IMG/VR virus record: IMGVR_UViG_3300027575_000001
Coordinates: 1-64,000 of that record
Origin: a virus
Length of the DNA: 64,000 nucleotides
Strand: one strand, 5' to 3'
Each line of letters opens with the position of its first letter. Within the stretch, counting starts at the first letter, position 1. The notes under the pieces are model-generated. The model was not told the origin of the DNA and searched no databases. It saw nothing but the letters and a program-made list of their open reading frames with translations. This document shows positions 7,580 to 64,000 of the stretch, in pieces. Made by a program: the position numbers and the translations under genes.

Positions 7580-8361
7580 GGCTTCTCTCCGATCCCGCGC
7601 CCTTCGCGGATATGCGCCCAGAACGCCTCTGCTTTACTTCCCGCTGTGTCGTAGCCGACCAGCCGCATGGCGTCGCCGATCAACTTGTCATCGTGAGCGA
7701 ATGCCACGCGCAGGGCTGCGGTCATGCCTTCGATACAAGCATCCTTCTCACACTGGGACAGCGCCTCGAACACGCCGCGATGGTAGTACGCTTTGCAGCA
7801 CCGCTCGACCACATCGTTCACTTTCGGGGCCGGGGCAGCATTCCCGTGGCATCGCTCGCAAACGCCCGACTCAGACGAATCGAGTCCGTCGCCACATTTG
7901 GGACACTTCGCAGGCGCTTGAACCTTATCGACAAGCATCGCTCCGCATCTCCCGCAAGCCGGATATGGCGGCGGCCACGCTACCTCAGGCTTAATGTCAT
8001 CTGTGGTTGCTTCGCAAGAACAGCACTTCATGATTGGCTGCACCCCCTGCGCACGTTGGGCGGCGTGTTCACGGCGATCAGACATCGCGCACGCCTCTCG
8101 ATATGCCTCAGCGTCGCGCAATACGAACTCAAGTACACTGGTCCCAGGCCTACACCCGTATTTCTCCGCATGGGCGCGGCAGGCCAACGCATGAGCGTTC
8201 GCCTCTTTTTCCCACCAAGGCTGTTCGGCGGGAGGCTGGCGCTCGGAAACCGCCTCTAGGACGGAACAGCCAATCTCCACCATCAACTTGCGAAGCGATG
8301 AAAACTCGTCGCTGTAGCACGTCAGACTTTCATCCAAAATTCTTATCTGCTCGCTATTCAT
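7576..8361 (-). CDS. Cys-rich hypothetical protein (multiple Zn-ribbon-like CxxC pairs)
   Basis: 261-aa ORF with GGAGGG RBS and ACGRCG...CPKCG...CERCH. Confidence 0.6.
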   Translation of the reverse strand: MNSEQIRILDESLTCYSDEFSSLRKLMVEIGCSVLEAVSERQPPAEQPWWEKEANAHALACRAHAEKYGCRPGTSVLEFVLRDAEAYREACAMSDRREHAAQRAQGVQPIMKCCSCEATTDDIKPEVAWPPPYPACGRCGAMLVDKVQAPAKCPKCGDGLDSSESGVCERCHGNAAPAPKVNDVVERCCKAYYHRGVFEALSQCEKDACIEGMTAALRVAFAHDDKLIGDAMRLVGYDTAGSKAEAFWAHIREGRGIGEKP

Positions 8362-8756
8362 TTGCCCTCCAGTAGCGCCAGCAGGCCATCGCCCACTTCC
8401 TGAGCGCCCTCCGCTGTGAATGTGCAGCCACGCTCCGCCAGGAACGCGATCACCTTGTCTTGTAGGCTCTGCGGGCGCCGCGATAGATTAGCGAATCGTC
8501 GCTCAAGGAACCTCCTCAGCGCAAACGACACCCTCATCTCGGTAGGTTCTCCACAAATGCGGAGTTGTGTGAGGAATCTTTCTACTTCGGACTGTGACGG
8601 CTCCGCCAGCGCCTCGCGGTAGTGCATCTCGCGCGTTAATTCCTCGGCCTTTCTACCCATCGCCGCGTACTCAGAGGGCGTATAAACGCCCATACATCGC
8701 GCCGAATCCATGATAGCCTTGCCGAACTTCCTCTCCTGCTCATCCGTCAGTTTCAT
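8358..8756 (-). CDS. hypothetical protein
   Basis: ATG at 8756 with GAGGAG RBS and an ATGA overlap with the upstream gene. Confidence 0.55.
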   Translation of the reverse strand: MKLTDEQERKFGKAIMDSARCMGVYTPSEYAAMGRKAEELTREMHYREALAEPSQSEVERFLTQLRICGEPTEMRVSFALRRFLERRFANLSRRPQSLQDKVIAFLAERGCTFTAEGAQEVGDGLLALLEGK

Positions 8757-16991: not shown

Positions 16992-17118
16992 ATCCAGTTT
17001 TGGTGGTACTGGGGACTGTCGGAGGGGTCAGCGATGGCTCTACGGGGCTTTAAACGCATCGTTTTAGGTGGATTGAGGGTGATTTTGGTGTTATACGAGC
17101 AAATGGGTATAGGGTCGC

Positions 17119-17181
17119 TGAGTACATCTGCCTCATGCTTTTGAGTACATCTGCCTCACTTGTTTGTGTACAATGTACTCA
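17119..17181 (+). promoter_or_regulatory. operator-like repeats: 2 direct 17-mers TGAGTACATCTGCCTCA plus 1 inverted half-site
   Basis: Direct copies at 17119-17135 and 17142-17158 (23-bp period). An inverted TGAGTACAT at 17173-17181 abuts the ATG at 17181. A TACAAT -10-like hexamer lies at 17169-17174. Confidence 0.55.
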
Positions 17182-17588
17182 TGGCAATCAAATATGGTAT
17201 TCGGGTGTTGGAGTGCGATGAGTGTGGGCATCGCTGGTTGCCCGAAGATAACGAGGCTTTGCCTGGGCAGTGTCCTAGCCGGATGTGCCGATCGCGTAAA
17301 TGGAATGCCAGCGGCAAGATTGTTGGCGAGGCTGCGGCCCAGCTACCAGCTCAGCCGTCGGCGCCATCTAATACCATCGCGGATATCACTGCGCGCCTGG
17401 GCCTTACCACAGCATCGAAGATGCACACACCGAAGCCTGAGCCACTGCCATCTCTTGTCGAAGACGATGAGCCAGACCTGCCGATGTGCATCTACACCGA
17501 GTACGACAGCGAGACTGGTGAGTGGTATCGATGTGGACTTCGGCAACACTCTGGCAAGGTGAAGCACACGCGCGGCAATAGAGTGTGA
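17181..17588 (+). CDS. Zn-ribbon protein, hypothetical regulator
   Basis: MAIKYGIRVLECDECGHRW...CPSRMC. The start is embedded in the operator repeats. Confidence 0.55.
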   Translation: MAIKYGIRVLECDECGHRWLPEDNEALPGQCPSRMCRSRKWNASGKIVGEAAAQLPAQPSAPSNTIADITARLGLTTASKMHTPKPEPLPSLVEDDEPDLPMCIYTEYDSETGEWYRCGLRQHSGKVKHTRGNRV

Positions 17589-17822
17589 CCATCCCGATCC
17601 GCTCCTAATGACCCTCCCACCCGGTCGCGCGCACCGATCACGCGACATCCGACCATCCGACCATCCCCGCGGCAATGCAAAACTCGCCTGCCACAAACCC
17701 AAATCCGTCTCGACGACGCCTCTCCGCAGATGGATGACGTGCACACAAGAGTATGGTCTGTGAATTTCAAAATCTGAAAAAAATAAATACTATGATGCGG
17801 GCAAACGTGAAGTACACTACTG

Positions 17823-18050
17823 GTGATGAACGACACGGTGAAATGGGCGAGACCGAAGAAGGTGCGTCATTGGCTGTACAACGCTGACGTGATAGACGGG
17901 GACAGATTAGCGCACGCTCTACGTGACTCGTTTCCACGGTTGATTGCGGTGGACGGAAAGCCGAGTGAGGAGTTCAGGCCGATCGAGGTATTTCTTCCAG
18001 TAAGGTCGAATCGGTTCGTGAGCCATTTTCCGTCGCGGAGGGCTACATGA
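17823..18050 (+). CDS. hypothetical protein
   Basis: 75-aa ORF (GTG-ATG start) after an AT-rich stretch and the CACTACTGGTG element. Confidence 0.4.
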   Translation: MMNDTVKWARPKKVRHWLYNADVIDGDRLAHALRDSFPRLIAVDGKPSEEFRPIEVFLPVRSNRFVSHFPSRRAT

Positions 18051-18199
18051 GACTGTTCCCGTTGTGGATGTGTGGGTTTCTGGGTCTGCTGGCGGTTGTA
18101 TTTGTCTACCGGGCATCCTGGTGGCTAGCCGCGTTTTTCTTCTTGGCGATGGTGCTGTGGATTGGGAACGAGATCTGCGAGAGGTTGAGGGCGCGATGA
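18047..18199 (+). CDS. 50-aa two-TM membrane protein (not in the ORF track)
   Basis: MRLFPLWMCGFLGLLAVVFVYRASWWLAAFFFLAMVLWIGNEICERLRAR, with ATGA overlaps at both ends. Confidence 0.45.
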   Translation: MRLFPLWMCGFLGLLAVVFVYRASWWLAAFFFLAMVLWIGNEICERLRAR

Positions 18200-18504
18200 C
18201 AACACTTTCGAGACGGAAGTTCTTCGCTCTGGCGGCTGGCGCCGCCGCTGCTCACGCGCTGCCGACCCCGGTGCTGGGGATGGGCGTTGAGCCTGCGGAG
18301 GACTGGGATAACCCAGCGCTGCTCGTGGGCGCCGATCTTCCACCTGCGCGCTTCCCCAAAGTCGGCGATATGATCTTTTGTAGCCGCGGTGGAATCTATG
18401 TTTTGCCAGCGACTGGGTATACGTTCAAGCTATCGAGCGACATCGCCGTCGAGCAGTTAGTGATTACCCACCTGCCTGCTTCTGTCGACAGGACTCGCGG
18501 ATGA
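18196..18504 (+). CDS. small exported protein with a twin-arginine (Tat) signal
   Basis: MTTLSRRKFFALAAGAAAAHALP is an SRRxFF Tat motif plus an h-region. Confidence 0.55.
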   Translation: MTTLSRRKFFALAAGAAAAHALPTPVLGMGVEPAEDWDNPALLVGADLPPARFPKVGDMIFCSRGGIYVLPATGYTFKLSSDIAVEQLVITHLPASVDRTRG

Positions 18505-18713
18505 CTCACGCATTTCTCAAGACTGGCGATCATGTCGAGGCAAAACAGCGCTGCACAAAGCGCGCCTACGCCTCGAGACAGGAGGCCCGGCGCCATATGA
18601 ACCGTGGAGTCGCGCGAAACAACGGCCGTGGGCTCGTGGCTGTAGGCAAAGGCCTCATGAATGTCTATCGTTGTCAGATCTGCGGTTTGTATCACTTGGG
18701 TCATAAATCATGA
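18501..18713 (+). CDS. small basic Zn-binding protein
   Basis: 70 aa ending in VYRCQICGLYHLGH, with an ATGA overlap. Confidence 0.5.
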   Translation: MTHAFLKTGDHVEAKQRCTKRAYASRQEARRHMNRGVARNNGRGLVAVGKGLMNVYRCQICGLYHLGHKS

Positions 18714-18829
18714 AGAAGGTTTTATGTTGGGCGCTCTTGCCTGTCCTGCTGCCGACGGTGTTCCTCGCGGCATTTGTGATCTCGATCATTGAAGTAATCA
18801 GTATGAAAGAAATTGGGAGGCGACAGTGA
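18710..18829 (+). CDS. 39-aa membrane micro-protein (not in the ORF track)
   Basis: MKKVLCWALLPVLLPTVFLAAFVISIIEVISMKEIGRRQ, with ATGA and GTGA overlaps. Confidence 0.4.
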   Translation: MKKVLCWALLPVLLPTVFLAAFVISIIEVISMKEIGRRQ

Positions 18830-20541
18830 AAAAAATCCATCTTGGGATCGCCGAAACTGGCGAGCAGGTCTACATCGACATCCCGATGTTGGTGGCCACG
18901 CGCCTGCTGGTCACGGCGTCATCCGGAGGAGGTAAGTCTGAGACCCTCCGCAGGATTCTCGAAGAGGCTGTCGGCCACATCCAGTGCATCGTCATCGATC
19001 CCGAGGGCGAGTTCTCGACCCTGCGGGAGAAGAAGCCCTTCGTGCTGGTCGGTGAGGGTGGCGAGACAGCGGCGGACGTCCGCACCGCGGCGCTTGTGGC
19101 CACCAGACTGCTGGAACTGAACGCCTCGGCGGTTTGCGACATCTACGAAATGCCCGTAGCTCAGCGCCATGAGTGGGTGAGGCGGTTCCTCGATGCCCTA
19201 GTTCACGCTCCAAAGTCGCTCTGGCATCCTGTGCTCGTTATTGTCGACGAGGCCCATACTTATTGCCCAGAGGCCGGCTACGGCAAGTCGGTGGCCTCCC
19301 AATCGGTGATCGACCTCTGCAATCTTGGCCGCAAACGAGGATTCTGCGCCATTCTCGCCACTCAGCGCCTTTCAAAGCTAGACAAGAACGCCGTAGAGCC
19401 CCTGCAAAACTACCTCCTGGGCCTCACGATGTTCGATGACCAGAAGCGCGCTTGCGAGACCTTCAAAGTGCCTGGCGGTGCGCCGACCCGCGAATTCTCC
19501 CTCGAGCTCGAGCGCCTGAAGGCTGGCCAATTCATCGCCCGCGGCCGCGCTATTACAGGGGACATGCTGAGGGTCCAGGTTCTGCAGGGCGAGACCAGGC
19601 CGCCAAAGACCGGCGCTGCAATGGCTGGCGTTGTTACGCCTACGCCCGAGGCCGTGAAGGCTCTCCTGCCAAAACTCGCTGATCTCCCGCAGGAAGCTGA
19701 GAAGAAAGCCAAGACCGAGGAGGATCTACGTCAAGAGGCCGGCGACGCCAAGCGGCGGATTGCGGAACTCGAACGCCAACTGAAACAACAAGTCCAACAA
19801 TCGAACGCTGAGGAGGTTCAGATGCTAAGAGAAACGCTTGCCCAACTCCAAACTGAAGCCGATGAGATGGAAAAGCAATTGGACGCCTACCAGAAGCGCA
19901 TCAAAAAGGCGGCTGAGATTGCGAAAACTCTCAGCGACACGCTTTCGGAACCAGAACTCGAGAAAGTTGTACGCGCATTCGTAGCGCCAGTTCCGCGCCG
20001 CGCGCCGCTTGCCCCCGTTTCTCGTCCCGCTCCGGCACCGCGCCCGGAAGGAGCCTCCGATGTGGCGATCAAGGCTGGCGCTCGCAGGATGCTTGGGGTT
20101 TTGGCCCAGTGGTTCCCGTCCGGCCGAACCGAGGCGCAGGTTGCGGCCCAGGTCCAGATGAAGAAGTCGAGTGGCACCTGGGGATCCTATAAATCGGTCC
20201 TGCGAATGGCTGGATACCTCGAGGTTGGCGGGGACGGCCTTTGGTACGCGACCGAGGCAGGACGCGATTTCATTGGACATAACGCGCAGGAAATGCCAGC
20301 AACGACTGAGGAGGTTGTCGCTCTCTGGGGATCGAAGCTAAAACGCGGAGCGCGCGCCATGCTCGATGTGCTCGTTGAGCACCGTGGCCGACCGATGAGC
20401 CGTGACGCTCTCGGAATCGCTGTGGATATGGAACCGGGAAGTGGAACCTTCGGGTCCTACCTCTCTGATCTTCGCCAAACTGGGTTGATTGTCACCGACG
20501 GCCAGGGCGTGCGTGCGAACGCGGAAACTTTGTTCCTTTGA
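18826..20541 (+). CDS. FtsK/HerA-superfamily (DUF87-like) ATPase with a coiled coil and two C-terminal winged-helix-like repeats
   Basis: Walker A VTASSGGGKSET, then CIVIDPEGEF, then Walker B VLVIVDEAH. Coiled coil at about aa 285-375. Two ~70-aa repeats share GAR.ML.VL...R...V.M..SGT[WF]GSY.S.LR..G (aa ~415-485 and ~505-571). Confidence 0.7.
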   Translation: MKKIHLGIAETGEQVYIDIPMLVATRLLVTASSGGGKSETLRRILEEAVGHIQCIVIDPEGEFSTLREKKPFVLVGEGGETAADVRTAALVATRLLELNASAVCDIYEMPVAQRHEWVRRFLDALVHAPKSLWHPVLVIVDEAHTYCPEAGYGKSVASQSVIDLCNLGRKRGFCAILATQRLSKLDKNAVEPLQNYLLGLTMFDDQKRACETFKVPGGAPTREFSLELERLKAGQFIARGRAITGDMLRVQVLQGETRPPKTGAAMAGVVTPTPEAVKALLPKLADLPQEAEKKAKTEEDLRQEAGDAKRRIAELERQLKQQVQQSNAEEVQMLRETLAQLQTEADEMEKQLDAYQKRIKKAAEIAKTLSDTLSEPELEKVVRAFVAPVPRRAPLAPVSRPAPAPRPEGASDVAIKAGARRMLGVLAQWFPSGRTEAQVAAQVQMKKSSGTWGSYKSVLRMAGYLEVGGDGLWYATEAGRDFIGHNAQEMPATTEEVVALWGSKLKRGARAMLDVLVEHRGRPMSRDALGIAVDMEPGSGTFGSYLSDLRQTGLIVTDGQGVRANAETLFL

Positions 20542-20596
20542 GCGCGTTATTTTAACTAGAAAAATGTCATAATGGCTTCAATCAGGATGTGCGCCA

Positions 20597-20944
20597 ATGT
20601 TTGACCACGAATTTTCAGAACGCCAACTCCAACAACTCCGAGAGGAACTAAACAAAGCCATGTCAACCACGAACGCAGGACTCGCCGCCCTGCAGCAGGC
20701 CGATCAGGACCTCGCTGCCGCCATCACCGCAAACACCGCCGAAGTAGCCGAGGCGGTCTCCGATATTCAATCACTCAGCTCGCAGTTGAGTGCAGCTACG
20801 AGCGGAGACCCCGATTCAACCGTCGCCACGATCGCGGCCGACCTTGAGACCAAGGTTGCAGCGCTCTCAGCAGCTACGACAGCGCTGACCTCTGCCGTGG
20901 GCCCTGCGTCCACTCCCACGCCGGCGCCGGCGCCAGGAAGCTAA
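20597..20944 (+). CDS. Ala-rich coiled-coil protein
   Basis: 115-aa ORF. A TGTCATAAT extended -10-like sequence lies about 30 nt upstream. Confidence 0.5.
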   Translation: MFDHEFSERQLQQLREELNKAMSTTNAGLAALQQADQDLAAAITANTAEVAEAVSDIQSLSSQLSAATSGDPDSTVATIAADLETKVAALSAATTALTSAVGPASTPTPAPAPGS

Positions 20945-20997
20945 GTTCGTCCCCCCAAACCAGCGGGGCGGCTCAGGTCGCCCTGCAGGACCTTAAA

Positions 20998-21219
20998 ATG
21001 ACCCGCGCCGAACTCAAAAAGCAAGCTCTCGGCCGATTGCGACTCAGTCTGCGTCCTGCAGACCTCGCGCGCGCGGGCCAAATTGCCGACGAGGTGCTTA
21101 TGCCATATCTCAAGCGGGATGAAACTGAGCACGATGGCAAAAAGGTCGTTGCCTTCAATTTTGGCCCACATTCAGTGATGTGGCTGGAACGGAAGATCAG
21201 GGAGAGGCTCAAACTATGA
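20998..21219 (+). CDS. hypothetical protein
   Basis: 73-aa ORF. Confidence 0.45.
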   Translation: MTRAELKKQALGRLRLSLRPADLARAGQIADEVLMPYLKRDETEHDGKKVVAFNFGPHSVMWLERKIRERLKL

Positions 21220-21410
21220 CCATGCACGAGCTCGTCACTGCAGTTCAACAGGACACTGGCCAACCGCGTGAGATGATCCTGCGCCGGGCCCGTGAAGCAT
21301 GGCCAGCCACTATCGACTTTAAAGATGTGCAGGTGCGTCTCCTGGCCGAGCAGTTGAGACGGAGCGAGAATCCGAGGAATCCGACGAGGGTCCTGTCGAT
21401 CGCGCGTTAA
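21216..21410 (+). CDS. hypothetical protein
   Basis: ATG at 21216 overlaps the upstream stop (ATGA). Confidence 0.45.
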   Translation: MTMHELVTAVQQDTGQPREMILRRAREAWPATIDFKDVQVRLLAEQLRRSENPRNPTRVLSIAR

Positions 21411-21930
21411 ATATATACACTTCTCCCTATTTTGTTGATCTTGCTTTTGTTCTGGTATTTGCTTCTAAAACCCCTGACACCCTCAACCTTAGGGGAAAAA
21501 CAACTCCCAAAATGGGTTGAGGATGAAAACGGCTCTTGGCCGTCACCCGACGTTTCCCAGGGGCTCCTGCGTCATACTCGCAGCCTAAATTCAGGAGCAA
21601 GCACCCCAATGCAGGAATCACGGCGCCTGGGGGCTACGATCTCAGCTCCCCCGCCGGTCCACGCTCTTGCACGCTCAGCGGATTACTCTCAGCGTCTCAT
21701 TGCCTGGACAGAGCCCAGGACGCAGAAATGCGCGATGGCAATGTGCAGGCCGAATTTTTCGGGGACATTTTCATCAATCTACTTCCCTGGCGATTGAAGA
21801 ATCGCACGGGCCGTGGCATAATGTCAATAGCGGTGGGAGTTCTTCTCTTCCATCCATCGATCTGCGACCCTGGCCGGCGTCAATCGATTCCCCACCGCGA
21901 CACATGTCCAACCCACAGCGCACGGCAGAG

Positions 21931-22934: not shown

Positions 22935-25900
22935 GTGAAAAGAGCCATCTGCACCGCCATCTGTCTCTTCATCCTCTCGTGTGCCACGTTCTGCGCCCAG
23001 ACTCCGACTCCAATCCCCGTCACAGGCAACCTGAGCAGCATTTTGGGAAACGGGCAAGCCTACGCAGGCGTCTCGATCCAGCTCTTGAATTGTCCGAGTC
23101 CTGTGTCGATCCCCGGCTATTCGGTCATCGTTCAGCAGGGTTATCAGGTACAGGCAAATCCGTCTGGAGTCGTGAACACAACAGTCTGGTCGAACGACCT
23201 CATCAACTGCAACGGGACTCAAGGAAACAGCGAGTATCAACTCTCCTACGTCGCCAACGGCGCGGTACAGGGAACGCCGCAGTGCTATCAGGTCGTCTCG
23301 ACGCAAACCTGGAACCTCAACACTCAGAGCCCGATCGCATGCACAGGATCAGCGCCCAACCCATATGGGGTTTCCCAAATTATTGCGGGCTCCGGCGTGA
23401 CCATTTCGCCTACGACCGGAAAGGGGAACGTCGTCATCAACTTGACCGGCGGGGGTGGAATGATCTATCCCGGCGCGGGGATTCCAAACTCAAGCGGCTC
23501 TTCGTGGCTTACGAGCTACGGCGTGAATGGCAGCGGCAACGTGGTGCTGACTACGAGCCCTACTCTTGTTACCCCGACCGCCAACACCTATAACGCAACC
23601 ACCGGCTACGACATTAATGGCACCCCCTTCGGCACGGCGAACCTGGCCGACTGGACAAACGCGGGCGTAGTGAACGGGGACTGCGCAGTGTGGAACAGCG
23701 GCACGAGCAAGTGGACGCCGGGGAGTTGCGGGGGCAGCGGGACCATCACGCTGACGGGCGACGTTACCGGATCAGGAACGGGCACGATTGCAACATCCGT
23801 CGTCAAAGTAAACGGCGCGGCTGTTCCCTCTTCGCAGGGCCTCGTGGGCACGAACGGTTCTGGGCAGATCGTAGCCGCCGGAGTTCCAGCGACCAACTTC
23901 AAGCATTGGTTTACGGCGCTGGGAAATACGATAGCCGGAATTAGCGACACGCGTGTGTGTATGCCCGGAGATTCGACATTCTTTGGCGCATATGCGTTGC
24001 CAACCGCACCTAGTACGAGCTGGGCAACCTATGGGCCGGATGCGCAACTCGCCAATGTTTTTCAATCGCAGTACCATATCCTCGCTCAAGCTGCTTCGCG
24101 GTTTGGATCGGGCAGTTCGGTGAGCATCTCTCCTTCGCTGCTGGGTGACGATCCTCGATTCTCCGTGGCCTCGCAATGGACCGCCGACACCACCACTCCA
24201 GTTCCCGGAGGCTATGCGATGGAGGCGACTTCCGCGGGGGACATGGCCTTTACGCCGGTGGAGAATATAGACACGTTCACTATCCATTTCCTGACGGGCA
24301 GCGGGTGGGGCACGTTCGCAGCACACATCGACGGGGGCAGCTCGACTACCCAGAGCACCAACGGAAGCCCTGGTATTGGAACTCTGGTCCTCACCGCTGG
24401 CAGTGTCGGCGTACACACGCTGCATCTCACCTGGTCCAGCGGCGGCGTCGTGAAATGGTGGGGCGCGGAAGGACGCGACTCGACGACCCATCATGTGATC
24501 TTTGAACAGATAGGTAACAGCGGGGCGACTTCAGCCAACTTCAGCGATACGTCGAACGTCTGGGGCGCCGGAGAATCTCTACCGTGGTCCACGCTTGCCT
24601 GCGATCTCGTTGTGCAGGAATCCGGCATCAACGATTGGAATACCTCAGTACCGGTGGCGACCTACAAAACCAATATGCAGACCACGGTTACGGCGCAACT
24701 TGCAGCCGGAGCCGACGTTGCCGAAGTGAGCGGGAACCCCAGCGACACATCACAAACGGGCGTCACTGTTGCCACACAACTGACCTACGTGACAGCGTTA
24801 CAACAAGTGGCGGCAGCGAACTCGAACGCCGGCCTTTCCACGCCGCTGCCTTTCATTAATAACTGGCAGATGTTCGCCGGTCCCGTTGAAGCGGCCAACT
24901 ACGGATATGGCTACGCCCAGAGTTTCGGACAGATGGCCGGAATCGACGGGGGACTGCATCCGAACCTCTACGGATACTATTCAAGTTCGGTTTCGATCGC
25001 ATCTGGCATCCTGACCAATCCATCAACGACGAACTACCAGCTTCAAACCTTTGCGTCCAATCCTTACTGGAAAACAGGATCGAGCAACGTCGAAGTGTAT
25101 TTTACAGATCCTCCGTGGTGGGGGCACTGCGATGGGACAACGGATGACCACGCCGCGCTCGGCAATGCACTCTACTTTTACTCCTCAGCCTTCCCCTCGC
25201 AGACGCCGGGGGCGTTCGCGGTGAACCTGCCATATTCCTACTCGTCTAGCCAGCGCACGTGTCTGATCACGGGCGCTGTGGGGGTCTTCGGCAACAATAC
25301 ATTGAAGGGCAACGGCTCGATTATTTCCTACTCCGGAACAGGCGCTGCGCTCTCAGTTACCGGACTGCAATCGTCAGGTTCTGGACAAAGCATCATGCGG
25401 GCGAAGGTGCAGGATTTGAAAGTTGTGCTGACGGCAGCGAGCGGGTCCGTAACCGGCATTTCTGCTACCGGCAACTTCCAATTGGATAACGTCACAGTGG
25501 CGACGAATGCGACGCCGACCAGCTACACATCGCTGAGCGTGACGGATGCCAGCGCGCCTCCGAACGGTTCGGTGACGAACTCGAGCTTCGACGGGCCGGT
25601 TTCGATTGACGGATCGGCGGGGAATGGCCCGGATACTCAGGCGTCGCTCAACTTCCTCAATGACAAAGTAGGCAGCGGCTCAACCACTATGCCGTCTGGA
25701 AATACTTCAATGGTGACGGTAACGAACTGGCGGGGCGGCATCTTGAATCTCAATTTTCCGTGGATGTACAACGCCTGGTTTCCGAGCAGTTCAACTTTTT
25801 TCAAAATCACAAACACGGCGGCTACAGACTTCGGCAGCTCGGCTGCAATCAATATCAACGCCACGCCGATTTCAGATGGAGGCACGCCGACCCTGCTGAC

Positions 25901-27530
25901 GTTCTCAAACAGCGGCGGCGGATCGGTGCCGGTAGTCTACGGCAACATCGACACCACGGGAAACAATGGGGGCGTCACCGCGATCTCCGGCTCATGCAAT
26001 GGAGTGATAAATATCGGGAACGCGATCTATGAGAATTGCGCCGTGCTTAGCGGCACCGGCACCGTCACGACCACCGGCTCACCGGCCAACCCGCAGCTTG
26101 CATGTTTCTCTGGTTCGACCTCAATCACCAATTGCGCGACTGCTTATGCGACAGTTGCTCAACTGCCGTCCTCCATATCTGCTGGGTCGCATCAATTTCT
26201 GACCAGTTACACGGCTTCGACGGAGACCTTCACGCAAGCGCAGCCGCTATGCGGAGACCTGTCTGCGAGCTCAACGACCGGCACAGCGTCATCGTCCACT
26301 TTTTGCCGAGGCGATGGACAATGGGCAACACCGAGCGGCGGGGGCACAACCACCAATGCTCTGACCATGAACAATGGCGGCTCTGGTGCTGCATCGGGCA
26401 CCACCTTCAACGGCAGCGCAGCCGTGACTGTCAGCTACAACACTCTAGGAGCAGGAGGTCTAGCAGCCTCTAATTCGTGGTCGGGCAACCAACTTTTTTC
26501 TGCCACTGTAACAATGGGACAATTGGGCATCGCAACGTCTGGAGGCAACTTCTCTTCCAATATTTTTTACTGGCAGGGCGACTATTGGAACGGCAGCGCC
26601 CCGGTGAACGATAACTGGTCCATGCAAAATGTGCTCGCTGCCACAGGAAGCAGCCCGACATCGACCCTTACCTTTGTCCATGGCGGAAGCAGTGGTATCG
26701 CGTCAGTGTCGATCCCCTACCCCACTGCGGTTGGAAACGGCTCAACTGCAACCACGCAGACGACTGGCGACAATACGACCAAGATCGCTACGGATGCCTT
26801 CGTGATCGCCAATGCAGGTGCCGGAGTAACCAGCGTTGCGCTGAGCAGCGCGACCGGAAATCTATTCAGCACCACGCCGGGAACCCCCGTTACCGCCTCT
26901 GGGACTCTCGATCCTGACGCTCAACTCAAGACGCAATCTGCGAACTGTGTTGTGGCCGGACCATCAAGCGGATCGGCGGCGGTTCCGACTTGCCGCACTC
27001 AGGTTACGGCCGATCTTCCCGTTGGCACCGTCGTATCGAGCACACCCGCAGTGGGGTCAAGCGACACGCTTAACTGCTCGACTGGCACCGGCGTGCAGAC
27101 CTTCGCTACTACGATCACGAGGCCAGCCTTCACGCAGGTAGCCGGTGCCATGTGGAAGTTAATTGTCACGTTGGCAATCACCACGAGCGGAACGCCCCCG
27201 ACGTTTCTTTTCGAGGTTGAAGATGGGAGCAATGTTGTCTATTCAACTGCCGCAGGAACTTTTACAGTCACGTCCGCCACCAACCTTGTATCTTCCGGGG
27301 AGATCAACCAGACAATAGCGGTCACGGGTTCATCGACGACTATGTATTCGGGTCTGACGGGTTTATTTCCCGGCGTGTCCAGCGCAGCGAATGTGCAAAA
27401 CCGGAGCCCGGTTCTGAGTAGCTTTAACTCGACAGCGTCCGCGACTGAATCTGTGCTTTTCCAATGCGGAACGGCTACGGGGGGCAATAGCGCGACTTTG
27501 ATTGATCTTGAGTACGTGAAGATTCGGTGA
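22935..27530 (+). CDS. tail fibre/tailspike-like depolymerase: signal-peptide-like N-terminus, SGNH/GDSL esterase and pectate-lyase-like beta-helix
   Basis: N-terminal MKRAICTAICLFILSCATFCAQ. SGNH blocks VCMPGDSTFFG, ESGINDWN and DGGLHPN. The motif WWGHCDGTTDDHAALGNAL is typical of the Pectate_lyase_3/tailspike N-cap. The C-terminal half is Gly/Ser/Thr-rich. Confidence 0.7.
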   Translation: MKRAICTAICLFILSCATFCAQTPTPIPVTGNLSSILGNGQAYAGVSIQLLNCPSPVSIPGYSVIVQQGYQVQANPSGVVNTTVWSNDLINCNGTQGNSEYQLSYVANGAVQGTPQCYQVVSTQTWNLNTQSPIACTGSAPNPYGVSQIIAGSGVTISPTTGKGNVVINLTGGGGMIYPGAGIPNSSGSSWLTSYGVNGSGNVVLTTSPTLVTPTANTYNATTGYDINGTPFGTANLADWTNAGVVNGDCAVWNSGTSKWTPGSCGGSGTITLTGDVTGSGTGTIATSVVKVNGAAVPSSQGLVGTNGSGQIVAAGVPATNFKHWFTALGNTIAGISDTRVCMPGDSTFFGAYALPTAPSTSWATYGPDAQLANVFQSQYHILAQAASRFGSGSSVSISPSLLGDDPRFSVASQWTADTTTPVPGGYAMEATSAGDMAFTPVENIDTFTIHFLTGSGWGTFAAHIDGGSSTTQSTNGSPGIGTLVLTAGSVGVHTLHLTWSSGGVVKWWGAEGRDSTTHHVIFEQIGNSGATSANFSDTSNVWGAGESLPWSTLACDLVVQESGINDWNTSVPVATYKTNMQTTVTAQLAAGADVAEVSGNPSDTSQTGVTVATQLTYVTALQQVAAANSNAGLSTPLPFINNWQMFAGPVEAANYGYGYAQSFGQMAGIDGGLHPNLYGYYSSSVSIASGILTNPSTTNYQLQTFASNPYWKTGSSNVEVYFTDPPWWGHCDGTTDDHAALGNALYFYSSAFPSQTPGAFAVNLPYSYSSSQRTCLITGAVGVFGNNTLKGNGSIISYSGTGAALSVTGLQSSGSGQSIMRAKVQDLKVVLTAASGSVTGISATGNFQLDNVTVATNATPTSYTSLSVTDASAPPNGSVTNSSFDGPVSIDGSAGNGPDTQASLNFLNDKVGSGSTTMPSGNTSMVTVTNWRGGILNLNFPWMYNAWFPSSSTFFKITNTAATDFGSSAAININATPISDGGTPTLLTFSNSGGGSVPVVYGNIDTTGNNGGVTAISGSCNGVINIGNAIYENCAVLSGTGTVTTTGSPANPQLACFSGSTSITNCATAYATVAQLPSSISAGSHQFLTSYTASTETFTQAQPLCGDLSASSTTGTASSSTFCRGDGQWATPSGGGTTTNALTMNNGGSGAASGTTFNGSAAVTVSYNTLGAGGLAASNSWSGNQLFSATVTMGQLGIATSGGNFSSNIFYWQGDYWNGSAPVNDNWSMQNVLAATGSSPTSTLTFVHGGSSGIASVSIPYPTAVGNGSTATTQTTGDNTTKIATDAFVIANAGAGVTSVALSSATGNLFSTTPGTPVTASGTLDPDAQLKTQSANCVVAGPSSGSAAVPTCRTQVTADLPVGTVVSSTPAVGSSDTLNCSTGTGVQTFATTITRPAFTQVAGAMWKLIVTLAITTSGTPPTFLFEVEDGSNVVYSTAAGTFTVTSATNLVSSGEINQTIAVTGSSTTMYSGLTGLFPGVSSAANVQNRSPVLSSFNSTASATESVLFQCGTATGGNSATLIDLEYVKIR

Positions 27531-51683: not shown

Positions 51684-54600
51684 ATGGCAACGACGCCCAT
51701 CCAATTGTCCGATTCCGACCTCGACAGCGGAAGCCAGCAGGCTCCTGCGCAGCCGGTCTCTCTCTCCTCATCTGACATCGACCCGCAGAGCCAGCCGGGT
51801 CCTGTCAATCCATATTCCGACGCAGCTATGGTTGGCACTGCGCCGCGCGAGGGATTCTGGCATTCACTGGGCGCGACCTTCGGGATGACTCCCGAAGCTG
51901 CGCAGGCTCAAAGAGATGAATTTACGCGACATCCAGTGAGATCGACCATTGAAGACATTGGCGGTCCTGCCGTTTCGGGAGCCGAGGGCCTCTACCGCGG
52001 TTTTATGCGCACTACCGATGAGGCCGGACAGGCTGTAACTGCGGCGCAGCAGGGCAATCCGTACTCAGCCGCAGAGCATGCCGCCTACGCGCTGCCTTTT
52101 GTTGGTGAGGGGATCAAAAGGGGGGTAGAGCAACTTGGACCGGACGGCGAGGTCACTCCTGCTTCTGTAGGAACGGCATTGGGCACTGCGATTCAAACAG
52201 CGCCGATGTTGACCGGTGGTGGAGAGGCTGTCAAGACCATAGAGACGCCTGGCGAAGTATTGCCCCCTCCCGGCGAATTGCCTCCTCCGTCGTCCCCCCC
52301 TCCCACGCCCCCAACGATCGAAGGCGGCGGAGCAGGAGGAAGCGCCCCCGAAAGTCTGCAACTGGGAGGGGGCCGTGGTGGCGTTGCTACTGCTACGCGC
52401 ACTCAAACAACACAAGCACCGACGGTAATCCCTGCCAAACTACCGCTAGCCGCCACGCTTCCCCCCGAACTCGAAGCTCTGCAGGCGCGCGCCTCTCAGG
52501 CGACGGACGCCGCGCACGCGGCCGGGCAGGAACTGTTAAAGGCGCAAAGAGCGCAGCGCGCTGCACAGGCCGCTGGTGAACCAGTCCAACCGATCGATCC
52601 TGAATTGGTTCAGAGAGCGCAATATCTTCGCGCACAAGCGCAGGACCTGAACACAACGGCTATGCGCACCAGTGAGGAGTGGCGCAAAGGCCCTTCCCAA
52701 TGGGAGGCGGATCCTGCCGGGCGACAAACCACCGTCCCGAGTCCTGCCGAAGTCGGCGCCGATTACGTCGCCAAAGTGAAAAGCGGAATTCCCCCACAGA
52801 TCGCTGCGGCCGGTCTCGGGATGACCCGCCAGGACCAAGAAACTGTTCACGTGGCGGCCTTCTTTACGCCGTCCGCCGTCGCCACTGCTGCGGCTTCTAA
52901 TAAGCAGCCAGTGGCCCCCCAACAAACAGCCCCTACGCCGCCACCGCAATCGCCCAATCCGGTTGCTATGCAGCAGCAGGCCCAGCAGGCGACAATCGCC
53001 GAAACCGCTGCGCAAGCCCAGGGAATCAAAGCGAAGGCCGACGATATTGCGATGGGCATCCCCCCGCCGAAGCCGCCGCAGGTCCCCATGCCCGCGGGAA
53101 TGGATCAGGGTGCGCTCACGCAGGACACGGTGAATCTGGCTGGCTCGGTCATCATGCGTTTGCCAGCGATGCAGCGCCCTGTCGCGATCAGGGAATCGGT
53201 GGGAAACCTCGCCAACTGGATGCTCGCCACGCGCACGGTAGTCGCACCAGACGGAACCGTAGTCAACGTGGATAGCCAGAAGACGGCACAGACCGAGGCC
53301 GTGAACGTCATCAACAACGAGATCGGCAGGCAGAACGAACTGATTAAAGCTCAGCACGATGCCCAGCAGGACGCCGCGAAAGAGCGCCAGGAAAGCGCCC
53401 AGCAAGCGCAGGAGGAACGTGACGAGGCAATCCGACCCACCGAAACAGCCAAGAAGTCCACAGGAAATGCAGAGCCAGTGGAAATCCCGGACACGCCTGC
53501 TACTCAGAAGGCTGCTGTTGCGCTTGCGCGCGCGCCGATGGACGCGACCTCGGAACAACTTGACGCCCTGATTCGCAGGACCGCGACCGTCACAATGCCG
53601 GTGCGCAAAGCGATGGTCGAGCGGGAAATTCAGCGTCGGGCCAACCGGCAGGAAGATCACAACCAGGCCGGGATGATGGGCGAGCCGATCCCGCCAGGCC
53701 AGAGCCGCGAGGAACTGCAGCGCTGGGCCGATGCTGTAAAGAAAGGCGAACATCCGTTCATTCATGTTCCCGCCAACGTCGCGTGGAAGCCTGCTGGAGT
53801 GGAGGACCTCACGCGCACGCCAGTCAAGGGCGCGGGGACGTTCAGCGGGACCTACTACCACGCGAAGGAGATCGAGGCCGCAGACATTCGTAAAGCGGCG
53901 CGGGACAAAAAGAATCCCCAAGGTGAACTGGATAAGCTGGTCGCCAAGTTCAAAGGGGAAGCGAGTCCTGTTGAACTGAAGGATGAAGACGTTGCGCAGG
54001 TCCACAAGTACGGCAACACTCAGGCCGACATTCCTGACAACTCTGACGCTGGCCGTGCGCTGGCTGCGCTTCGCCAGACAATCAGCCCCGCAGACCTGAT
54101 GGGCGAAGGGCTGGTAAAGGACGCGCACATCACCGTGCGGTATGGCATCGATGGGACCGACACGGCTGGAATCAGGGCATATCTTGAAAAGCAAGCGCCC
54201 TTCCAAGCTACTCTCGGCAAGACAACGGCATTCCCGCCCAGCGAGCATTCAGACGGCGCTGCACCAATCGTCGTCGCCGTAGAGGCCGCGGATCTGCGCA
54301 GGATGGAAAAGGAGCTAGATCAGCACGGGAAGTTTGTCGAGCGGTCGTTCCCTGATTACAAGCCTCACGCAACAGTGGCCTACGTCAAGCCGGAAGCGGC
54401 CAAGAAGTACACAGGACTCGCAACTGCCGAGGGCAAGACCTTTACCGTCAGTTCGGTATCCATCTCCAAGCAAGACGGCAGTATCGAGGAAATCGCATTC
54501 AAGGGCCGTTCTCCAGTTGTTACCTCGGAAGCGCCAAAGGGAGAACAGCCAGCTAACAAACCTGAGATGAAAGCGGCTGAACCTGAGACGAAACGCGGCG

Positions 54601-57600
54601 AAGTCGGCATGATGCTGGCTCCCGGTGAGACGGTCTTGACTGTGACAGGACGCAAGACGACACCTTTCCCCCGGGTGGATACCAGCACCAATGGAAAGGC
54701 TACGAACACCGTCAAGCGTGTTGACCAGTGGCTCATGGATAACGCCATCCTTGAGGCGCAATCCCGGCATGACGAGTTCAACCTGCGCCAGTTCCAACAG
54801 AACAGCCAGAAGCCGTCTCCCGCCGACAAGGACTCAGCCGAGATGTACCTGTTCGACAAGGACAGCGTACAGCCGATTCCTAAGCCGTTCTTGAAACCGT
54901 TGCCCGCCCCAGCCGCCAAAGCCATCACCGCCCTAGTCGATGAGCAAGCCTCGCAGGACCCCACTGCAACCCTCGATAGCGTCCTGCGGGACAAGGACAC
55001 AGGACACTTTGTTGCCCAAGCTCTGGTAAACGATGGTATCCTCACCAGTAGTGCAGAAAACGTGAACCCGAGAAACGCTCTACTAACGACTTCCGCCAGA
55101 GCCAAAGTAGGGGATGCGCTCCTAGGTGAACTGTTGCCTGCTGAAGTGATTGAGCAGACGCCTGACTTCCTGAAACAGAAACTCTTGGGCACGATGGGCA
55201 GCATCAAAGCCATCGCTGGCGCTGAGGACGGCTGGAACCTCAAGCCTCATATCGTTGCCGCCGCCGAACGGTACGATCAAATCTTCCGTGGGCTTGATAC
55301 CCACGAGCAGGGTCCTGTCGTCGAGGCGATTCTCAAGAAGCTGGACGAGCCGATCGACAAGATGCGGCAGGCATTCTCGTCGTTCGCAGTCGCCGCCACG
55401 AATCACGATCCAAGCGATAAACCGTTCTTCGATTTCAACCTGGCTTTCGGAACGGAACTGACGCAAGAGCAGTACGAGAAGGGGCTGAAGCTGGTTGAGA
55501 AGGCCGCCAAGGGAGAGCCTGTAAAGGTCAGCCAGCACACATCGGAGATGGCACTCATGCGCGCTGACTCCACGCCTATGCTTGACATTCATCACGAGCC
55601 GACCGGATGGCTGAAAGTTGAGCACGACAACGGCACCGTTCTCGTTCACCCTCACGAGAACACGATGATCTACTTCACCAGCAAGGATCGCCGGTCTGGA
55701 ACTGAGGCCATGCGCGCTAAAGCCGAGGCGCAAGCATATGCCATCGACAATCCAGTTGCTCCGAAGCCTACCGGCCCGGCCGGAGAGTTGATCGTCAAGC
55801 CGCTCTTCCAGCAGCAGGAAGCCAAGCCTCTCGCCAAGGGCGACAGGGTAACCTACAGGACCAACAAAGGGAAAGAGCGCACCGGAGAAGTAGCTTGGAC
55901 CGACGGCAAAAAGGTGCGGATCGCGGACAACGGCTCGACTGTCAACAAGAACATCGAGGATGTAAGTCCTGTAAAAGCCGCGAGCGCCGAGGAATCGAAG
56001 GGCGAGCCAACTGGCGAAGCAACCCTCGTTGACGCGCTGCAATTGAAGTTTGAGCACGGCGCAGGACCGAAGGACTACAACGGCCTGAAAAAGATCGTCA
56101 CTGAGTTCGATGGCAAGGAACCTGACCAGCTCCGCATGAAGGAGGCTCAGGAAGCCTACGAGGCCATGCTGAACCGGGTCGCCTCCGAGATCATCACCAG
56201 CCAAGCAAAGAACTTTGGAGCGAGCACTTCTGGTAATCAGCGTGTCTTTGAACGCCTTGTAGGCCTCTACCAGGGCCAGCCCAACCTTGCTATCAGGACC
56301 AGCACCAGCATCGGGAACCAGGCCTATTCGACGCCACTCCCACTCGCCTTCGTGGCCGACCGCTTTGCCGGGGTCGACTGGCACAGCACGGTCTATGAGC
56401 CCACGGCTGGCAATGGGGCGCTGCTGATCGCTGCAAACCCCGAGAAGACCGCAGCGAACGAGTTGGACCCGGCGCGCGCGCAGACTCTTAAGGACGAGGG
56501 ATTCAACGTCGAGAGCCACGATGCAACTGTCTGGACACCGAACAATCGCTATGACGCCGTAGTCGCAAACCCGCCGTTCGGCAACCTTCCGGGTCCTGTC
56601 AAAGTGGATGGGTACAACATCGTAAAACTGGACCATCTGATCGCAGCCAAAGCTCTCGGCGTGATGAAGGACGCCGGAAAAGCTGCAATCATCCTCGGCG
56701 CAGGATCCAGAGAAGAGGCTGGCGAAGTCACGAACGCTGCTCGTCCCTTCTTTAATTGGCTCTACGCTCACTACAACGTGGTCTCTGATTTTGAACTCGA
56801 GGGAGACCTTTACTCACGCCAGGGTGCAGCATGGCCTGTGCGTGTGATCGCCATTGACGGCCGGGTTCGCTCCGCCAAAGTGAGTCCCGTTGCCGACACC
56901 ATTCCACGCTTGAAAACATGGGAGGAAGTTTATGACAAAGCTGCTGAATATCTGGGCTCCAATCTTGAAGGACAGCGACCGGCAGGTAATGTCGCTGGCG
57001 GTGCCGTGCGGGCCGAAAGCCCCGACACCGGAGCAATACCGGGAACTGTTGCAGGACGAAATCAGCCGGCTGATCGAGGAGAATCCTCAGCGGGCCCGGC
57101 AGGACCTCGAAGCGATGGGGGGACCAAGTTACAGCCCGGACCTATCCAACATAGCGGTCGGGTCCCCGACCCAGGAGTGGGGACCACAGATAGCACAGTT
57201 AGACCAAATGGGGATGTTGCTCGCTCAGATCGACTGGCAGAAGGAGAACCCCCCGCGCGAGTTGTCAGAAGACAATCTGCCGAGCCTGATGGACATCCTG
57301 CAAATGCTCTGAGTCCTATCGATACGATCGTCGACGAAAGCAACCAGTTCCAATCGAGCTACCGGCCCCACTCCGCGAAGAAGGACGTTGCAGTGATGGC
57401 GCCCAAGGCTCTGATAGGACCCATGCAGCAAGCGATGGACCGCGTTGCGGAGGAAGCTGGCGACATCGACGAGTGGGTGACGAACGAATTAGGTTACCCT
57501 GACGTCAAGACAATGCATGAGGCTTTCATGGGCATCCAGACGGACGCCATCGCCGCGGCAATTCATCAGATGCAGCGCGGGAAAGCTATCGTGGTTGGAG

Positions 57601-63377: not shown

Positions 63378-63635
63378 ATGACCGTGTGGGCTCAACAGGC
63401 TTTCGATCACGTCCGGCAGGTTGCGCGCAGGAAGAATCTCTTCACGACAGATGACGTGATGGAATCGATGGGCGACATTCCATGTACGGTCGATCGGCAC
63501 GTCATGGGCTCTGTGATGAATCGAGCAGCAGGACTCGGGATCATCCAGAAGACCGATACCTTCGTTCCATGTAAACGCAGAAATCAGCACGGTAGCCCTC
63601 GCCGCGTGTGGAAATCCTTGGAGATAGCAGGATGA
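63378..63635 (+). CDS. hypothetical protein
   Basis: 85-aa ORF. Confidence 0.5.
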   Translation: MTVWAQQAFDHVRQVARRKNLFTTDDVMESMGDIPCTVDRHVMGSVMNRAAGLGIIQKTDTFVPCKRRNQHGSPRRVWKSLEIAG

Positions 63636-64000
63636 CGCAGGACCCTGAAAAGCCCCTCATGCCCCGGCGCCCGATAACCGCCTCTGACCCCTTGCGTCCT
63701 GTTGCTCACCGCAAACCTGAGAAGCTGAAACCCCTACGCAAGCGGGATAAGGCGAACCCCGAGCAAATCGAAGCCGACTGCTTGAGTCTCACTGTGATCG
63801 AAAAGGCTTGTGCCATCATCTGCGTCGAGAAAGACAAAGAATCCGCGGCCATCGAACTGAACATGAGCCTGACCGAAGTGCAGGAAATCCTCGACTCGGC
63901 ACCGGTACGCTTGTTCCTATCGAAGTTGCAGGACGAGGAAATCAAGGAACTGGCGAAGACCAAGGTTCGCAGGATGCGCAAAGTCGGCATCTGCAAAGCG
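63632..64000 (+). CDS. 5' part of a probable small terminase subunit (open to the window end)
   Basis: ATG at 63632 overlaps the upstream stop (ATGA). 123 codons with no stop. The segment AAIELNMSLTEVQEILD is HTH-like and the position at the end of the late module fits. Not in the ORF track because it has no stop. Confidence 0.35.
   Translation, partial: MTQDPEKPLMPRRPITASDPLRPVAHRKPEKLKPLRKRDKANPEQIEADCLSLTVIEKACAIICVEKDKESAAIELNMSLTEVQEILDSAPVRLFLSKLQDEEIKELAKTKVRRMRKVGICKA

Follow-up and report, generated by a model that had tools for sequence, protein, structure and literature searches.

What does a phage do with a protein that joins a HerA-like ATPase to a duplicated winged-helix tail, and does this protein work together with the small genes and the skewed DNA motif that accompany it? 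The question is raised by the gene cluster at 17823-20541 of a 64,000-nt stretch of DNA from a soil phage (positions 1 to 64,000 of the IMG/VR record IMGVR_UViG_3300027575_000001; hereafter the window), which ends in a gene for a protein of 571 amino acids (aa). A model that had read the sequence alone (the sequence-only reading) described the cluster as an operon of tiny membrane proteins and proteins exported by twin-arginine translocation (Tat), and proposed that the 571-aa protein is either a DNA pump oriented by the skewed 8-mer CAGGACTC or part of a membrane-associated exclusion system. We analysed the domains of the protein, its relatives and their genomic surroundings, and we lean towards the view that it acts autonomously in phage DNA metabolism, as a horizontally mobile hexameric translocase or helicase that is directed to a DNA site. 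The family to which it belongs is large, phage-borne and uncharacterised, and what is new about this family is that it is a variant within the FtsK-HerA superfamily.

The ATPase domain

The three motifs on which the sequence-only reading had based a HerA/DUF87-like core, SSGGGKSE (aa 32-39), CIVIDPEGEF (54-63) and IVDEAH (139-144), were all found in the translation. The motif set comprises Walker A (31-38), DPEGE (58-62), the Walker B motif DEAH (141-144), GRKRG (168-172) and TQR (179-181), and Walker A (GGGKS), DPEGE, DEAH, GRKRG and TQR were invariant when 45 homologues were aligned. The assignment to a HerA/DUF87-type core was borne out by profile and by predicted structure. The Pfam family DUF87 ("Helicase HerA, central domain") matched residues 9-125 with an E-value of 4.9e-13 and 50.1 bits against a cut-off of 23.2, and Foldseek with the model of the ATPase retrieved HerA structures at E-values of about 1e-12 (9x1m and 4d2i, about 4e-12). 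A sequence search of the PDB returned HerA proteins only (E 4e-6 for the protein itself as query, 7.7e-16 for a profile of the family). The DNA-bound FtsK motor (6t8b) was also among the structural neighbours (E 4.5e-8, target-normalised template-modelling (TM) score 0.41). The match to the FtsK/SpoIIIE-like family phrog_1358 was weak (E 0.005), and PF01580 (FtsK_SpoIIIE) was not among the listed Pfam matches of the 571-aa protein; a precomputed match to it was present on one homologue (P0108).

The AlphaFold2 model of the 571-aa protein, which was built on the 45 homologues and had a mean predicted local distance difference test (pLDDT) of 85.5, shows merely two short strands before Walker A. 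Since Walker A begins at residue 31, the N-terminal HAS barrel is absent. The alignments with HerA proteins of the PDB and NCBIfam cover the core only (residues 13-66 and 119-207 of the query on residues 167-222 and 418-505 of HerA), and the NCBIfam HerA equivalog models gave 18-37 bits against cut-offs of 800-970 (NF040819, 36.6 vs 970; NF042944, 31.7 vs 850; NF040937, 18.1 vs 800). No candidate membrane segment was seen in the protein, the maximum 19-residue hydropathy being 1.29. Judged by sequence and predicted structure, residues 1-270 form a complete RecA-fold ATPase of the FtsK-HerA superfamily.

The spacer and the tandem winged helices

The coiled coil that had been proposed to follow the ATPase agrees with the AlphaFold2 model, which places two long helices at aa 287-324 and 328-373. 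This helical spacer varies in sequence and length (5-27% identity in most homologues) and gave many weak matches to coiled-coil families in profile scans. At its foot stands the conserved peptide LPKLADLPxEAExKAKTE (aa 281-300), in which L284, P288 and A291 were invariant and L281 and D286 nearly so among the 45 homologues. The peptide might conceivably serve as a ring brace or as a docking site for a partner. A disordered linker leads from the spacer to the C-terminal modules.

The duplication noticed earlier in the C-terminus proved to be a true one: residues 414-471 and 504-561 are 38% identical over 58 aa (E 1e-9). When the C-terminal tandem was modelled alone with AlphaFold2, the pLDDT reached 93.7 and the topology H-H-H-beta-beta appeared twice. 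Foldseek returned winged-helix proteins only, among them RuvB domain III, the BpuJI recognition domain, IdeR/DtxR, SelB and Hpr, with modest E-values of 2e-3 or weaker. A profile made from 28 C-termini matched the ArsR-type regulator NolR (E 0.006, over domain 2) and IdeR (E 0.027). When the same 28 sequences were searched against Pfam, HTH_45 was matched by 14 and HTH_Crp_2 by 11, other matches being to MarR_2, HTH_24 and HTH_IclR; Ftsk_gamma was outside the 25 families most often matched. Profiles and predicted structure thus agree on two winged-helix modules, and the FtsK gamma-type domain to which the sequence-only reading had likened the tail was not upheld, the matches of the tail being to ArsR/MarR/Crp families.

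On these sequence and model data, the C-terminus is assigned to a tandem pair of winged helix-turn-helix domains like those of DNA-binding regulators (ArsR/MarR/Crp). They are mildly basic (median pI 8.7) and have conserved arginines in helix 1, in the recognition helix and in the wing. DNA binding by these domains would be expected from their relatives.

Distribution, mobility and module exchange

A word-indexed search with the 571-aa protein gave 974 matches, most of them to full-length proteins (520-600 aa). When the winged-helix tail was used by itself in an exhaustive search, about 890 clusters (50% identity) were obtained at E <=1e-10 and 2,229 at E <=1e-3; the tail was always C-terminal and occurred mostly in proteins of about 550-625 aa. 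A relative is encoded on 153 stretches of viral contigs, of which 80 loci were fetched, and on 94 stretches of genomes. The neighbourhoods, with 20-kb flanks, were compared first for 84 and then for 157 homologous loci. The closest relatives in genomes are from Acidobacteriota (60-73% identity), and the hosts of the family span more than 10 phyla, including Acidobacteriota, Proteobacteria (Nitrobacter, Rhodanobacter, Variovorax, Nannocystis), Planctomycetota, Chloroflexota, Gemmatimonadota, Ignavibacteria and Patescibacteria. Strains with a homologue include Nitrobacter vulgaris DSM 10236, Rhodanobacter sp. B04 and Nannocystis exedens DSM 71. The clusters of ten homologues sourced from NCBI were all unnamed or "hypothetical", and the family name gave nothing beyond "DUF87 domain-containing protein". 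Plasmid matches covered the ATPase domain only and lay among uninformative hypothetical-protein genes.

The closest homologue with available DNA is at the locus L086. Its ATPase is 85% and its winged helices are 69-70% identical to those of the window, and the two DNAs share this gene alone, at 72% nucleotide identity. These sequence comparisons indicate that the ATPase gene has moved between unrelated phages. In four homologues (P0028, P0030, P0034, P0044), the ATPase is 76-84% identical to that of the window, with winged helices of just 16-29% identity; the pattern is reversed in P0038 and P0049 (ATPase 51-60%, winged helices 53-57%). As judged from these identities, the winged-helix module has been exchanged between close relatives of the ATPase, a domain that retains about 50% identity across phyla.

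Three copies of the same winged helix also occur in stand-alone proteins of about 365 aa that contain no ATPase (P0173, P0274, P0292). A further variant, P0208 (985 aa), carries an intein within the ATPase domain; inteins favour conserved DNA-metabolism enzymes. Taken together, a conserved engine, an exchangeable DNA-binding module, mobility and the lack of an obligate partner (see below) fit a self-sufficient enzyme whose specificity would reside in its own tail.

As a separate observation, the locus L064 encodes a second, tail-less HerA-like ATPase (350 aa, 7595-8647) 1.3 kb upstream of the full-length gene.

Genomic context of the ATPase gene

The ATPase gene lies in early polycistronic operons of tailed phages and prophages, together with genes for replication, recombination and DNA modification. 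In one prophage early region, a DnaC-like loader, an SbcC-like ATPase, a methyltransferase and a serine recombinase are encoded near it. TerS, TerL and portal genes follow a few kb downstream in another context, and RecT, DUF5131, SNF2 helicases and an integrase are found in further ones. The commonest neighbours at the 157 loci were DUF5131 (22 loci), ParB_N-like (10), SNF2 (8) and ASCH (7) proteins, followed by Dam, single-stranded DNA-binding protein (SSB) and a PD-(D/E)XK nuclease (5 each) and by Rep_O and RecT (4 each); RusA and the DnaC-like loader were also among them. An all-against-all BLAST of the neighbours revealed no conserved partner gene at either the 84 or the 157 loci, the top family reaching 22 of 157, and neither NurA nor Sir2 nor DUF4297 was present among the neighbour families of the 157 loci.

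These data bear on a role in defence or counter-defence. Like the HerA-type rings of Sir2-HerA and DUF4297-HerA or the mad8 component of MADS, the protein would detect factors that the host or competing phages have bound to DNA, or strip them off. The PADLOC search points in this direction. Its best match was mad8 (PDLC04140; E 2.7e-16, residues 4-190), accompanied by HerA models of defence systems down to 3e-14, and Sir2-HerA and DUF4297-HerA complexes were among the Foldseek neighbours. Moreover, the gene is mobile and autonomous, as is typical of arms-race genes, and the same phage has a giant open reading frame (ORF) resembling a polyvalent protein and a Lar-like restriction-alleviation gene. 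However, the protein lacks an effector domain, no effector gene is conserved beside it at the 157 loci, and the effector-docking N-terminal domains of defence HerA are absent, Walker A being at residue 31. MADS is an eight-gene operon (bioRxiv 10.1101/2023.03.30.534895), and the preprint gives no account of the domains of mad8. The other MADS genes, the methyltransferase included, were not found near the 571-aa gene, whose neighbours are orphans without a PADLOC match, and the mad8 model itself (314 positions) has no winged-helix tail; the match is limited to the ATPase core. The gene is also part of densely packed operons of the early lytic phase and does not occupy a moron-like position, and the level of ATPase identity across phyla is unusually high for an arms-race gene. 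We therefore regard a defence device as rather unlikely.

The context also bears on a role in transcription. In an ATP-dependent regulator or DNA-bound switch, the winged helices could sit on operators while the ATPase restructures a nucleoprotein complex as early expression gives way to late. The winged helices belong to the type seen in ArsR/MarR/Crp repressors, the gene is often found a few kb upstream of late genes, and one of the stand-alone triple winged-helix genes leads an operon that runs rightward from a divergent junction, which is a regulator-like position. On the other hand, operator-like repeats were not found beside the gene, and its neighbours are DNA-metabolism genes, not regulators. 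We know of no transcription factor that uses an FtsK-HerA ring, and we consider this role decidedly unlikely.

Proposed role of the 571-aa protein

Sequence and model data show which domains the protein has and where its gene lies, and both point to a self-contained DNA motor that would carry its own address label. By analogy with all structurally characterised relatives, the protein would assemble into a hexameric ring. The tandem winged helices would dock this ring on a phage-specific DNA site or structure, and ATP hydrolysis would drive translocation on, or unwinding of, phage DNA in the early phase of replication and recombination. The purpose might be remodelling of origins or forks, processing of recombination intermediates, or clearing of bound proteins. 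Because the phage has a DnaB-type helicase and an SbcC-like ATPase, the protein would be an accessory motor and not the replicative helicase. If this proposal is correct, the combination of a ring motor and an address module of winged helices that can be exchanged would represent a new type of phage DNA-metabolism enzyme and a natural example of a translocase retargeted by domain swapping.

Several points weigh against this proposal. Hexamer formation, DNA binding and translocation are all carried over from relatives, and the top PADLOC score goes to a component of a defence system. Winged-helix tandems can bind protein instead, as in ScpB, although the match to ScpB was non-significant (E 0.43). 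The DnaB-type helicase and the SbcC-like ATPase encoded by the phage make a replicative-helicase role unnecessary. No full-length homologue was found in any of 50,697 deposited phage genomes, and literature searches found no paper on the family or its architecture. Furthermore, a DNA target did not emerge. No iteron array is present in or beside the 571-aa gene in the window, a pooled scan revealed no consistent repeat position across the homologue loci, and no DNA site was found to be common to the window and L086, in which the number of shared 13- to 16-nt words was only about 1.7-2 times a rough random expectation; the common 15-16-mers occur as a single copy in each genome.

In the pooled scan, repeat arrays were seen about 0.75-1.1 kb upstream of the ATPase gene in several loci. 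They were rejected as a common feature, being mostly tripeptide-repeat coding arrays or iterons in or beside other upstream genes (L084, L039). At L084 (8959-9034) and L039 (9084-9291), iteron-like direct repeats (AAACGGTCAGGGGT, three to four copies, and GTTGTTGTAGG, seven copies, respectively) lie 0.65-1 kb upstream of the ATPase gene, which is thereby placed next to the origin in these two phages. The iterons of L084 are inside a small gene for a winged-helix-like putative initiator, as in the lambda O gene.

Comparison with known systems

With HerA (Pfam DUF87/PF01935), which gave the best sequence and structure matches, the 571-aa protein shares the RecA-fold core with Walker A, DP.GE, DEAH, GRK.G and (T/S)QR. 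It differs in lacking the N-terminal HAS barrel, in falling far short of the HerA equivalog cut-offs, in lacking a NurA, Sir2 or DUF4297 partner at the 157 loci, and in the addition of the coiled-coil-like spacer and two winged helices. FtsK and SpoIIIE are ring translocases of the same superfamily with a flexible linker and a C-terminal winged helix, an outline to which the 571-aa protein conforms, its own ring being predicted. Unlike FtsK, however, it has no membrane domain; it has two winged helices per chain, which are not of the Ftsk_gamma family, it is phage-encoded, and guidance by a skewed genome-wide 8-mer is not supported.

The nearest analogue, to judge by its published description, is Streptomyces TraB, which is likewise a motor with its own address module on a mobile element. 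TraB is an FtsK-like hexameric motor whose C-terminus recognises 8-bp direct repeats at clt, and it is encoded beside translationally coupled genes for small membrane proteins (spd) (PMC4447253). The two differ in that TraB is membrane-associated and conjugative, whereas the present family is found in tailed phages and has no membrane segment and no conserved membrane partners; a clt-like repeat array was found neither in or beside the 571-aa gene nor consistently across the loci. From sequence and model, then, the 571-aa protein resembles FtsK and TraB in outline and belongs to neither, and it is nearest to HerA in sequence yet fails the defining features of HerA.

The skewed 8-mer CAGGACTC

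The 8-mer CAGGACTC occurs 45 times in the window against 2.7 expected copies, a number that no shuffle reached, and the copies are spread over the whole window (e.g. 176, 1919, 2563, ... 63529). Its strand bias is 33+/12- (p 0.0025), and the + bias also holds (9+/2-) in the left arm, whose genes run on the - strand. In its extended form, CGCAGGACTC, the motif is found at 14+/3- and the core GCAGGAC at 59+/29-. A FtsK/SpoIIIE-like pump, in which the winged helices would read this motif and orient translocation along the phage genome, was suggested by this strong and skewed over-representation, by its independence of gene strand, and by the union of an FtsK-HerA motor with winged helices in one protein.

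The co-occurrence of gene and motif argues against such a pump. The 20 kb of the L086 locus, which encodes the closest homologue with available DNA, contain 0+/1- copies of CAGGACTC, whereas about 14 were predicted from the density in the window. Among 68 loci that carry a homologue and measure 12 kb or more, no more than four come near the over-representation of the window when tandem copies are removed, and these four show no strand skew. Homologues are thus present in phages that lack any dispersed skewed 8-mer, and by the condition that the sequence-only reading had set itself, the link that it had drawn between ATPase and motif fails. Since L086 and the window share nothing but this gene, the gene appears to work after transfer into genomes without the motif. 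In addition, the winged helices are not of the FtsK gamma type, and the skew, about 2.75:1, is much weaker than that of KOPS, the strand bias of which is near-absolute. A motif-guided pump is accordingly extremely unlikely.

In a version restricted to this one protein, its winged helices would have evolved to read the + biased (C)GCAGGACTC, and the ring would be loaded in one orientation and pump directionally, as an analogue of FtsK on KOPS. The 30% divergence from the protein of the motif-less L086 could change the specificity, because winged-helix modules are swapped and diverge fast; we give this version a very slim chance. The 571-aa gene does not explain CAGGACTC, and the cause of the motif remains unexplained.

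Strong raw 8-mer skews in the homologue loci (e.g. 45+/1-) were discarded, all of them being due to tandem 9-bp or 15-bp coding repeats. The 9-bp arrays encode DAR/DAL/AAR (or LAD/LAY) tripeptide-repeat proteins (L031 3713-5014, L069 605-2242, L074 3583-5178, L121 8773-9285, L075 12699-13541). Such proteins are encoded by several unrelated ATPase-bearing phages, and their arrays mimic highly skewed 8-mers in naive counts. In L031, L069 and L074, the proteins end in a conserved domain rich in Trp, which comes after the tripeptide repeats.

The small upstream genes

The 50-aa protein is hydrophobic over residues 1-45 (19-residue Kyte-Doolittle maximum 2.19) and probably has two membrane segments, and the 39-aa protein has one hydrophobic segment (maximum 2.61). 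The membrane segments that had been read into these two proteins are thus backed by hydropathy. The N-terminus of the 102-aa protein, MTTLSRRKFFALAAGAAAAHA, is twin-arginine-like in the translation, with SRRKFF, the Ala/Gly-rich ALAAGAAAA and AHA; the hydropathy of the hydrophobic region is 1.48. The 70-aa protein contains C58-x2-C61-x3-H65-x2-H68, a motif from which it is possibly zinc-binding, and it matches phrog_3424 (function unknown; E 5.3e-6).

These genes invite comparison with the TraB-Spd system. An ATPase with co-translated small membrane proteins and Tat-exported proteins could form a membrane-associated apparatus for exclusion or DNA transfer, as TraB interacts with the products of its translationally coupled spd operon (PMC4447253). 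Consistent with this, the genes of 50, 102, 70 and 39 aa and the ATPase gene are linked by 4-nt overlaps, and the 50- and 39-aa products are hydrophobic. However, the small genes of the window had no homologue in the other ATPase loci collected for this comparison. The 102-aa protein is an orphan, for which besides itself one partial match was found among 5.8 billion proteins, and it had no family match in profile scans with Pfam, PHROGs, NCBIfam and PADLOC. By the sequence comparisons the 50-aa protein is specific to this phage. Hydrophobic membrane proteins made up 6.1% of the products encoded within three genes of the ATPase and 7.8% of those at four to seven genes (Fisher p 0.23), so that they are not enriched beside it, and no Tat-like neighbour of the ATPase was present in the other homologous loci.

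At the 157 loci the median gap between the ATPase gene and its same-strand neighbours is -4 nt on both sides, which indicates that the overlapping starts and stops of the window represent ordinary operon packing; they are usual with non-homologous neighbours too. The ATPase itself has no hydrophobic segment. A functional operon of the ATPase with membrane, Tat-like and zinc-motif genes, as the sequence-only reading saw it, is therefore not supported, and a membrane-associated apparatus is very unlikely. On the sequence comparisons, the "membrane operon" is a chance juxtaposition, and its small genes are unrelated early genes that share a transcript with the ATPase.

Packaging and the terminase genes

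That the 571-aa protein is not a terminase, as had been stated, was confirmed. The region after the ATPase consists of helices and winged helices and contains no RNase-H-like nuclease, the gene is in the early region and not in a head module, and there are prophages that encode a homologue as well as canonical TerS, TerL and portal proteins. The idea of a packaging ATPase was checked because the terminase, portal and capsid genes of this phage went unrecognised in searches against Pfam, PHROGs and the PDB sequences. A genome-packaging ATPase of the PRD1/PM2 FtsK-HerA type might replace or assist the terminase. PRD1 P9, PM2 and A32-like packaging ATPases have a compact FtsK-HerA domain of about 200-260 aa and, like the 571-aa protein, no HAS barrel. 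Foldseek against predicted viral structures (BFVD) returned compact ATPases of membrane-containing viruses and FtsK-like phage proteins, with target-normalised TM scores of 0.57-0.79 to the ATPase of Haloarcula hispanica virus PH1, a corticovirus NTPase and an unnamed protein of 202 aa; A32-like packaging ATPases were also matched. A match to phrog_2666 (terminase large subunit; E 1.8e-14) points the same way.

Against this, the packaging ATPases have neither the spacer nor the winged helices and belong to virion-assembly modules, whereas homologues of the 571-aa protein occur in prophages that also have genes for TerS, TerL (with an ATPase and a nuclease domain) and portal, and the 571-aa gene lies outside the head module. 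The phage also appears to have terminase genes of its own. The TerS-like gene that the sequence-only reading had placed at the right end of the window is present, as an ORF of helix-turn-helix appearance that starts at about 63632 and runs off the end. In the longer assembly L169, this ORF of 195 aa is followed by separate ORFs of 252 and 402 aa (about 63632-64000, onward L169 21949-24511). The latter two, which lie just past the end of the window, contain TerL-like motifs (KSRTMMVT, FFSDE, NSTS), which were read by eye, with no database match, and suggest a split or very divergent large terminase. A packaging role for the 571-aa protein has a virtually negligible probability.

Organisation of the gene cluster

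The features of the cluster and of the 571-aa protein are listed in Table 1.

Table 1. Genes of the cluster at 17823-20541 and segments of the 571-aa protein (positions in the window)
Feature	Position	Strand	Remarks
75-aa ORF	17823..18050	+	GTG start; doubtful gene; stop overlaps the next start (ATGA)
50-aa hydrophobic protein gene	18047..18199	+	ORF list, also public gene call
102-aa Tat-like protein gene	18196..18504	+	starts at an ATG inside a longer GTG ORF
70-aa basic CxxC...HxxH protein gene	18501..18713	+	ORF list, public gene call
39-aa protein gene	18710..18829	+	single hydrophobic segment; ORF list, public gene call
571-aa protein gene	18826..20541	+	GTG start; predicted HerA/FtsK-superfamily ATPase, helical spacer, two winged-helix domains
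ATPase domain, aa 1-270	18826..19635	+	no HAS barrel, no membrane segment; pLDDT >90
Conserved peptide, aa 281-300	19666..19725	+	foot of the helical spacer, just after the ATPase
Two long helices, aa 287-324 and 328-373	19684..19944	+	coiled-coil-like spacer; AlphaFold2 secondary structure
Proline-rich linker, aa 375-408	19948..20049	+	disordered; pLDDT <50
Winged helix-turn-helix domain 1, aa 417-475	20074..20250	+	AlphaFold2, Foldseek, Pfam
Winged helix-turn-helix domain 2, aa 494-564	20305..20517	+	AlphaFold2, Foldseek, Pfam

The raw sequence contains the overlaps ATGA at 18047, 18196, 18501 and 18710 and GTGA at 18826, and a Shine-Dalgarno sequence, GGGAGG, is located 6 nt 5' of the GTG of the 571-aa gene. 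All six ORFs have a coding-like codon-position pattern of GC content (GC1>GC2<GC3). On a public contig that carries an identical 571-aa protein, genes of 50, 102, 70, 39 and 571 aa are called. The 75-aa ORF is not called there; its GC1/2/3 values of 0.55/0.45/0.64 are coding-like, and it had no family match in the Pfam, PHROGs, NCBIfam and PADLOC scans. Of the six coupled genes described from the sequence, the overlaps and five genes (50, 102, 70, 39 and 571 aa) are thus firm, and the sixth remains doubtful. The DNA of 17000-21500 gave no similarity match to deposited phages.

Upstream of the cluster, a 23-nt tandem direct repeat (TGAGTACATCTGCCTCA..., 83% identical) at 17119-17164 directly precedes and overlaps the start of a 142-aa zinc-ribbon-like ORF (17160-17588). 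The repeat could be an operator or another regulatory site.

Other features of the phage genome

The same genome of about 68.4 kb (L169, L170; 68,352-68,438 bp) was assembled independently in at least three metagenomes with different start points, as is expected of a complete genome that is circularly permuted or terminally redundant. The closest genome homologues of the ATPase are in Terriglobales metagenome-assembled genomes, which hints at an acidobacteriotal host.

An ORF of 3896 aa at 51684-63374 (+) has matches to 2',5' RNA ligase, ResIII, AAA_34, Helicase_C_4 and a methyltransferase-like PHROG. Its matches give it the look of a giant polyvalent protein such as phages inject against host defences. 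The Lar-like restriction-alleviation gene mentioned above is encoded in the same phage. After the early cluster, an ORF of 1531 aa at 22935-27530 (+) gave as its sole match a weak one to GDSL-lipase/acylhydrolase (E 1e-5), and its product may be a virion-associated enzyme. Just outside the window, on the - strand (L169 24514-26701), the phage encodes GroEL (575 aa, Cpn60_TCP1) and GroES (142 aa, Cpn10), and these genes adjoin an HNH gene and DnaB.

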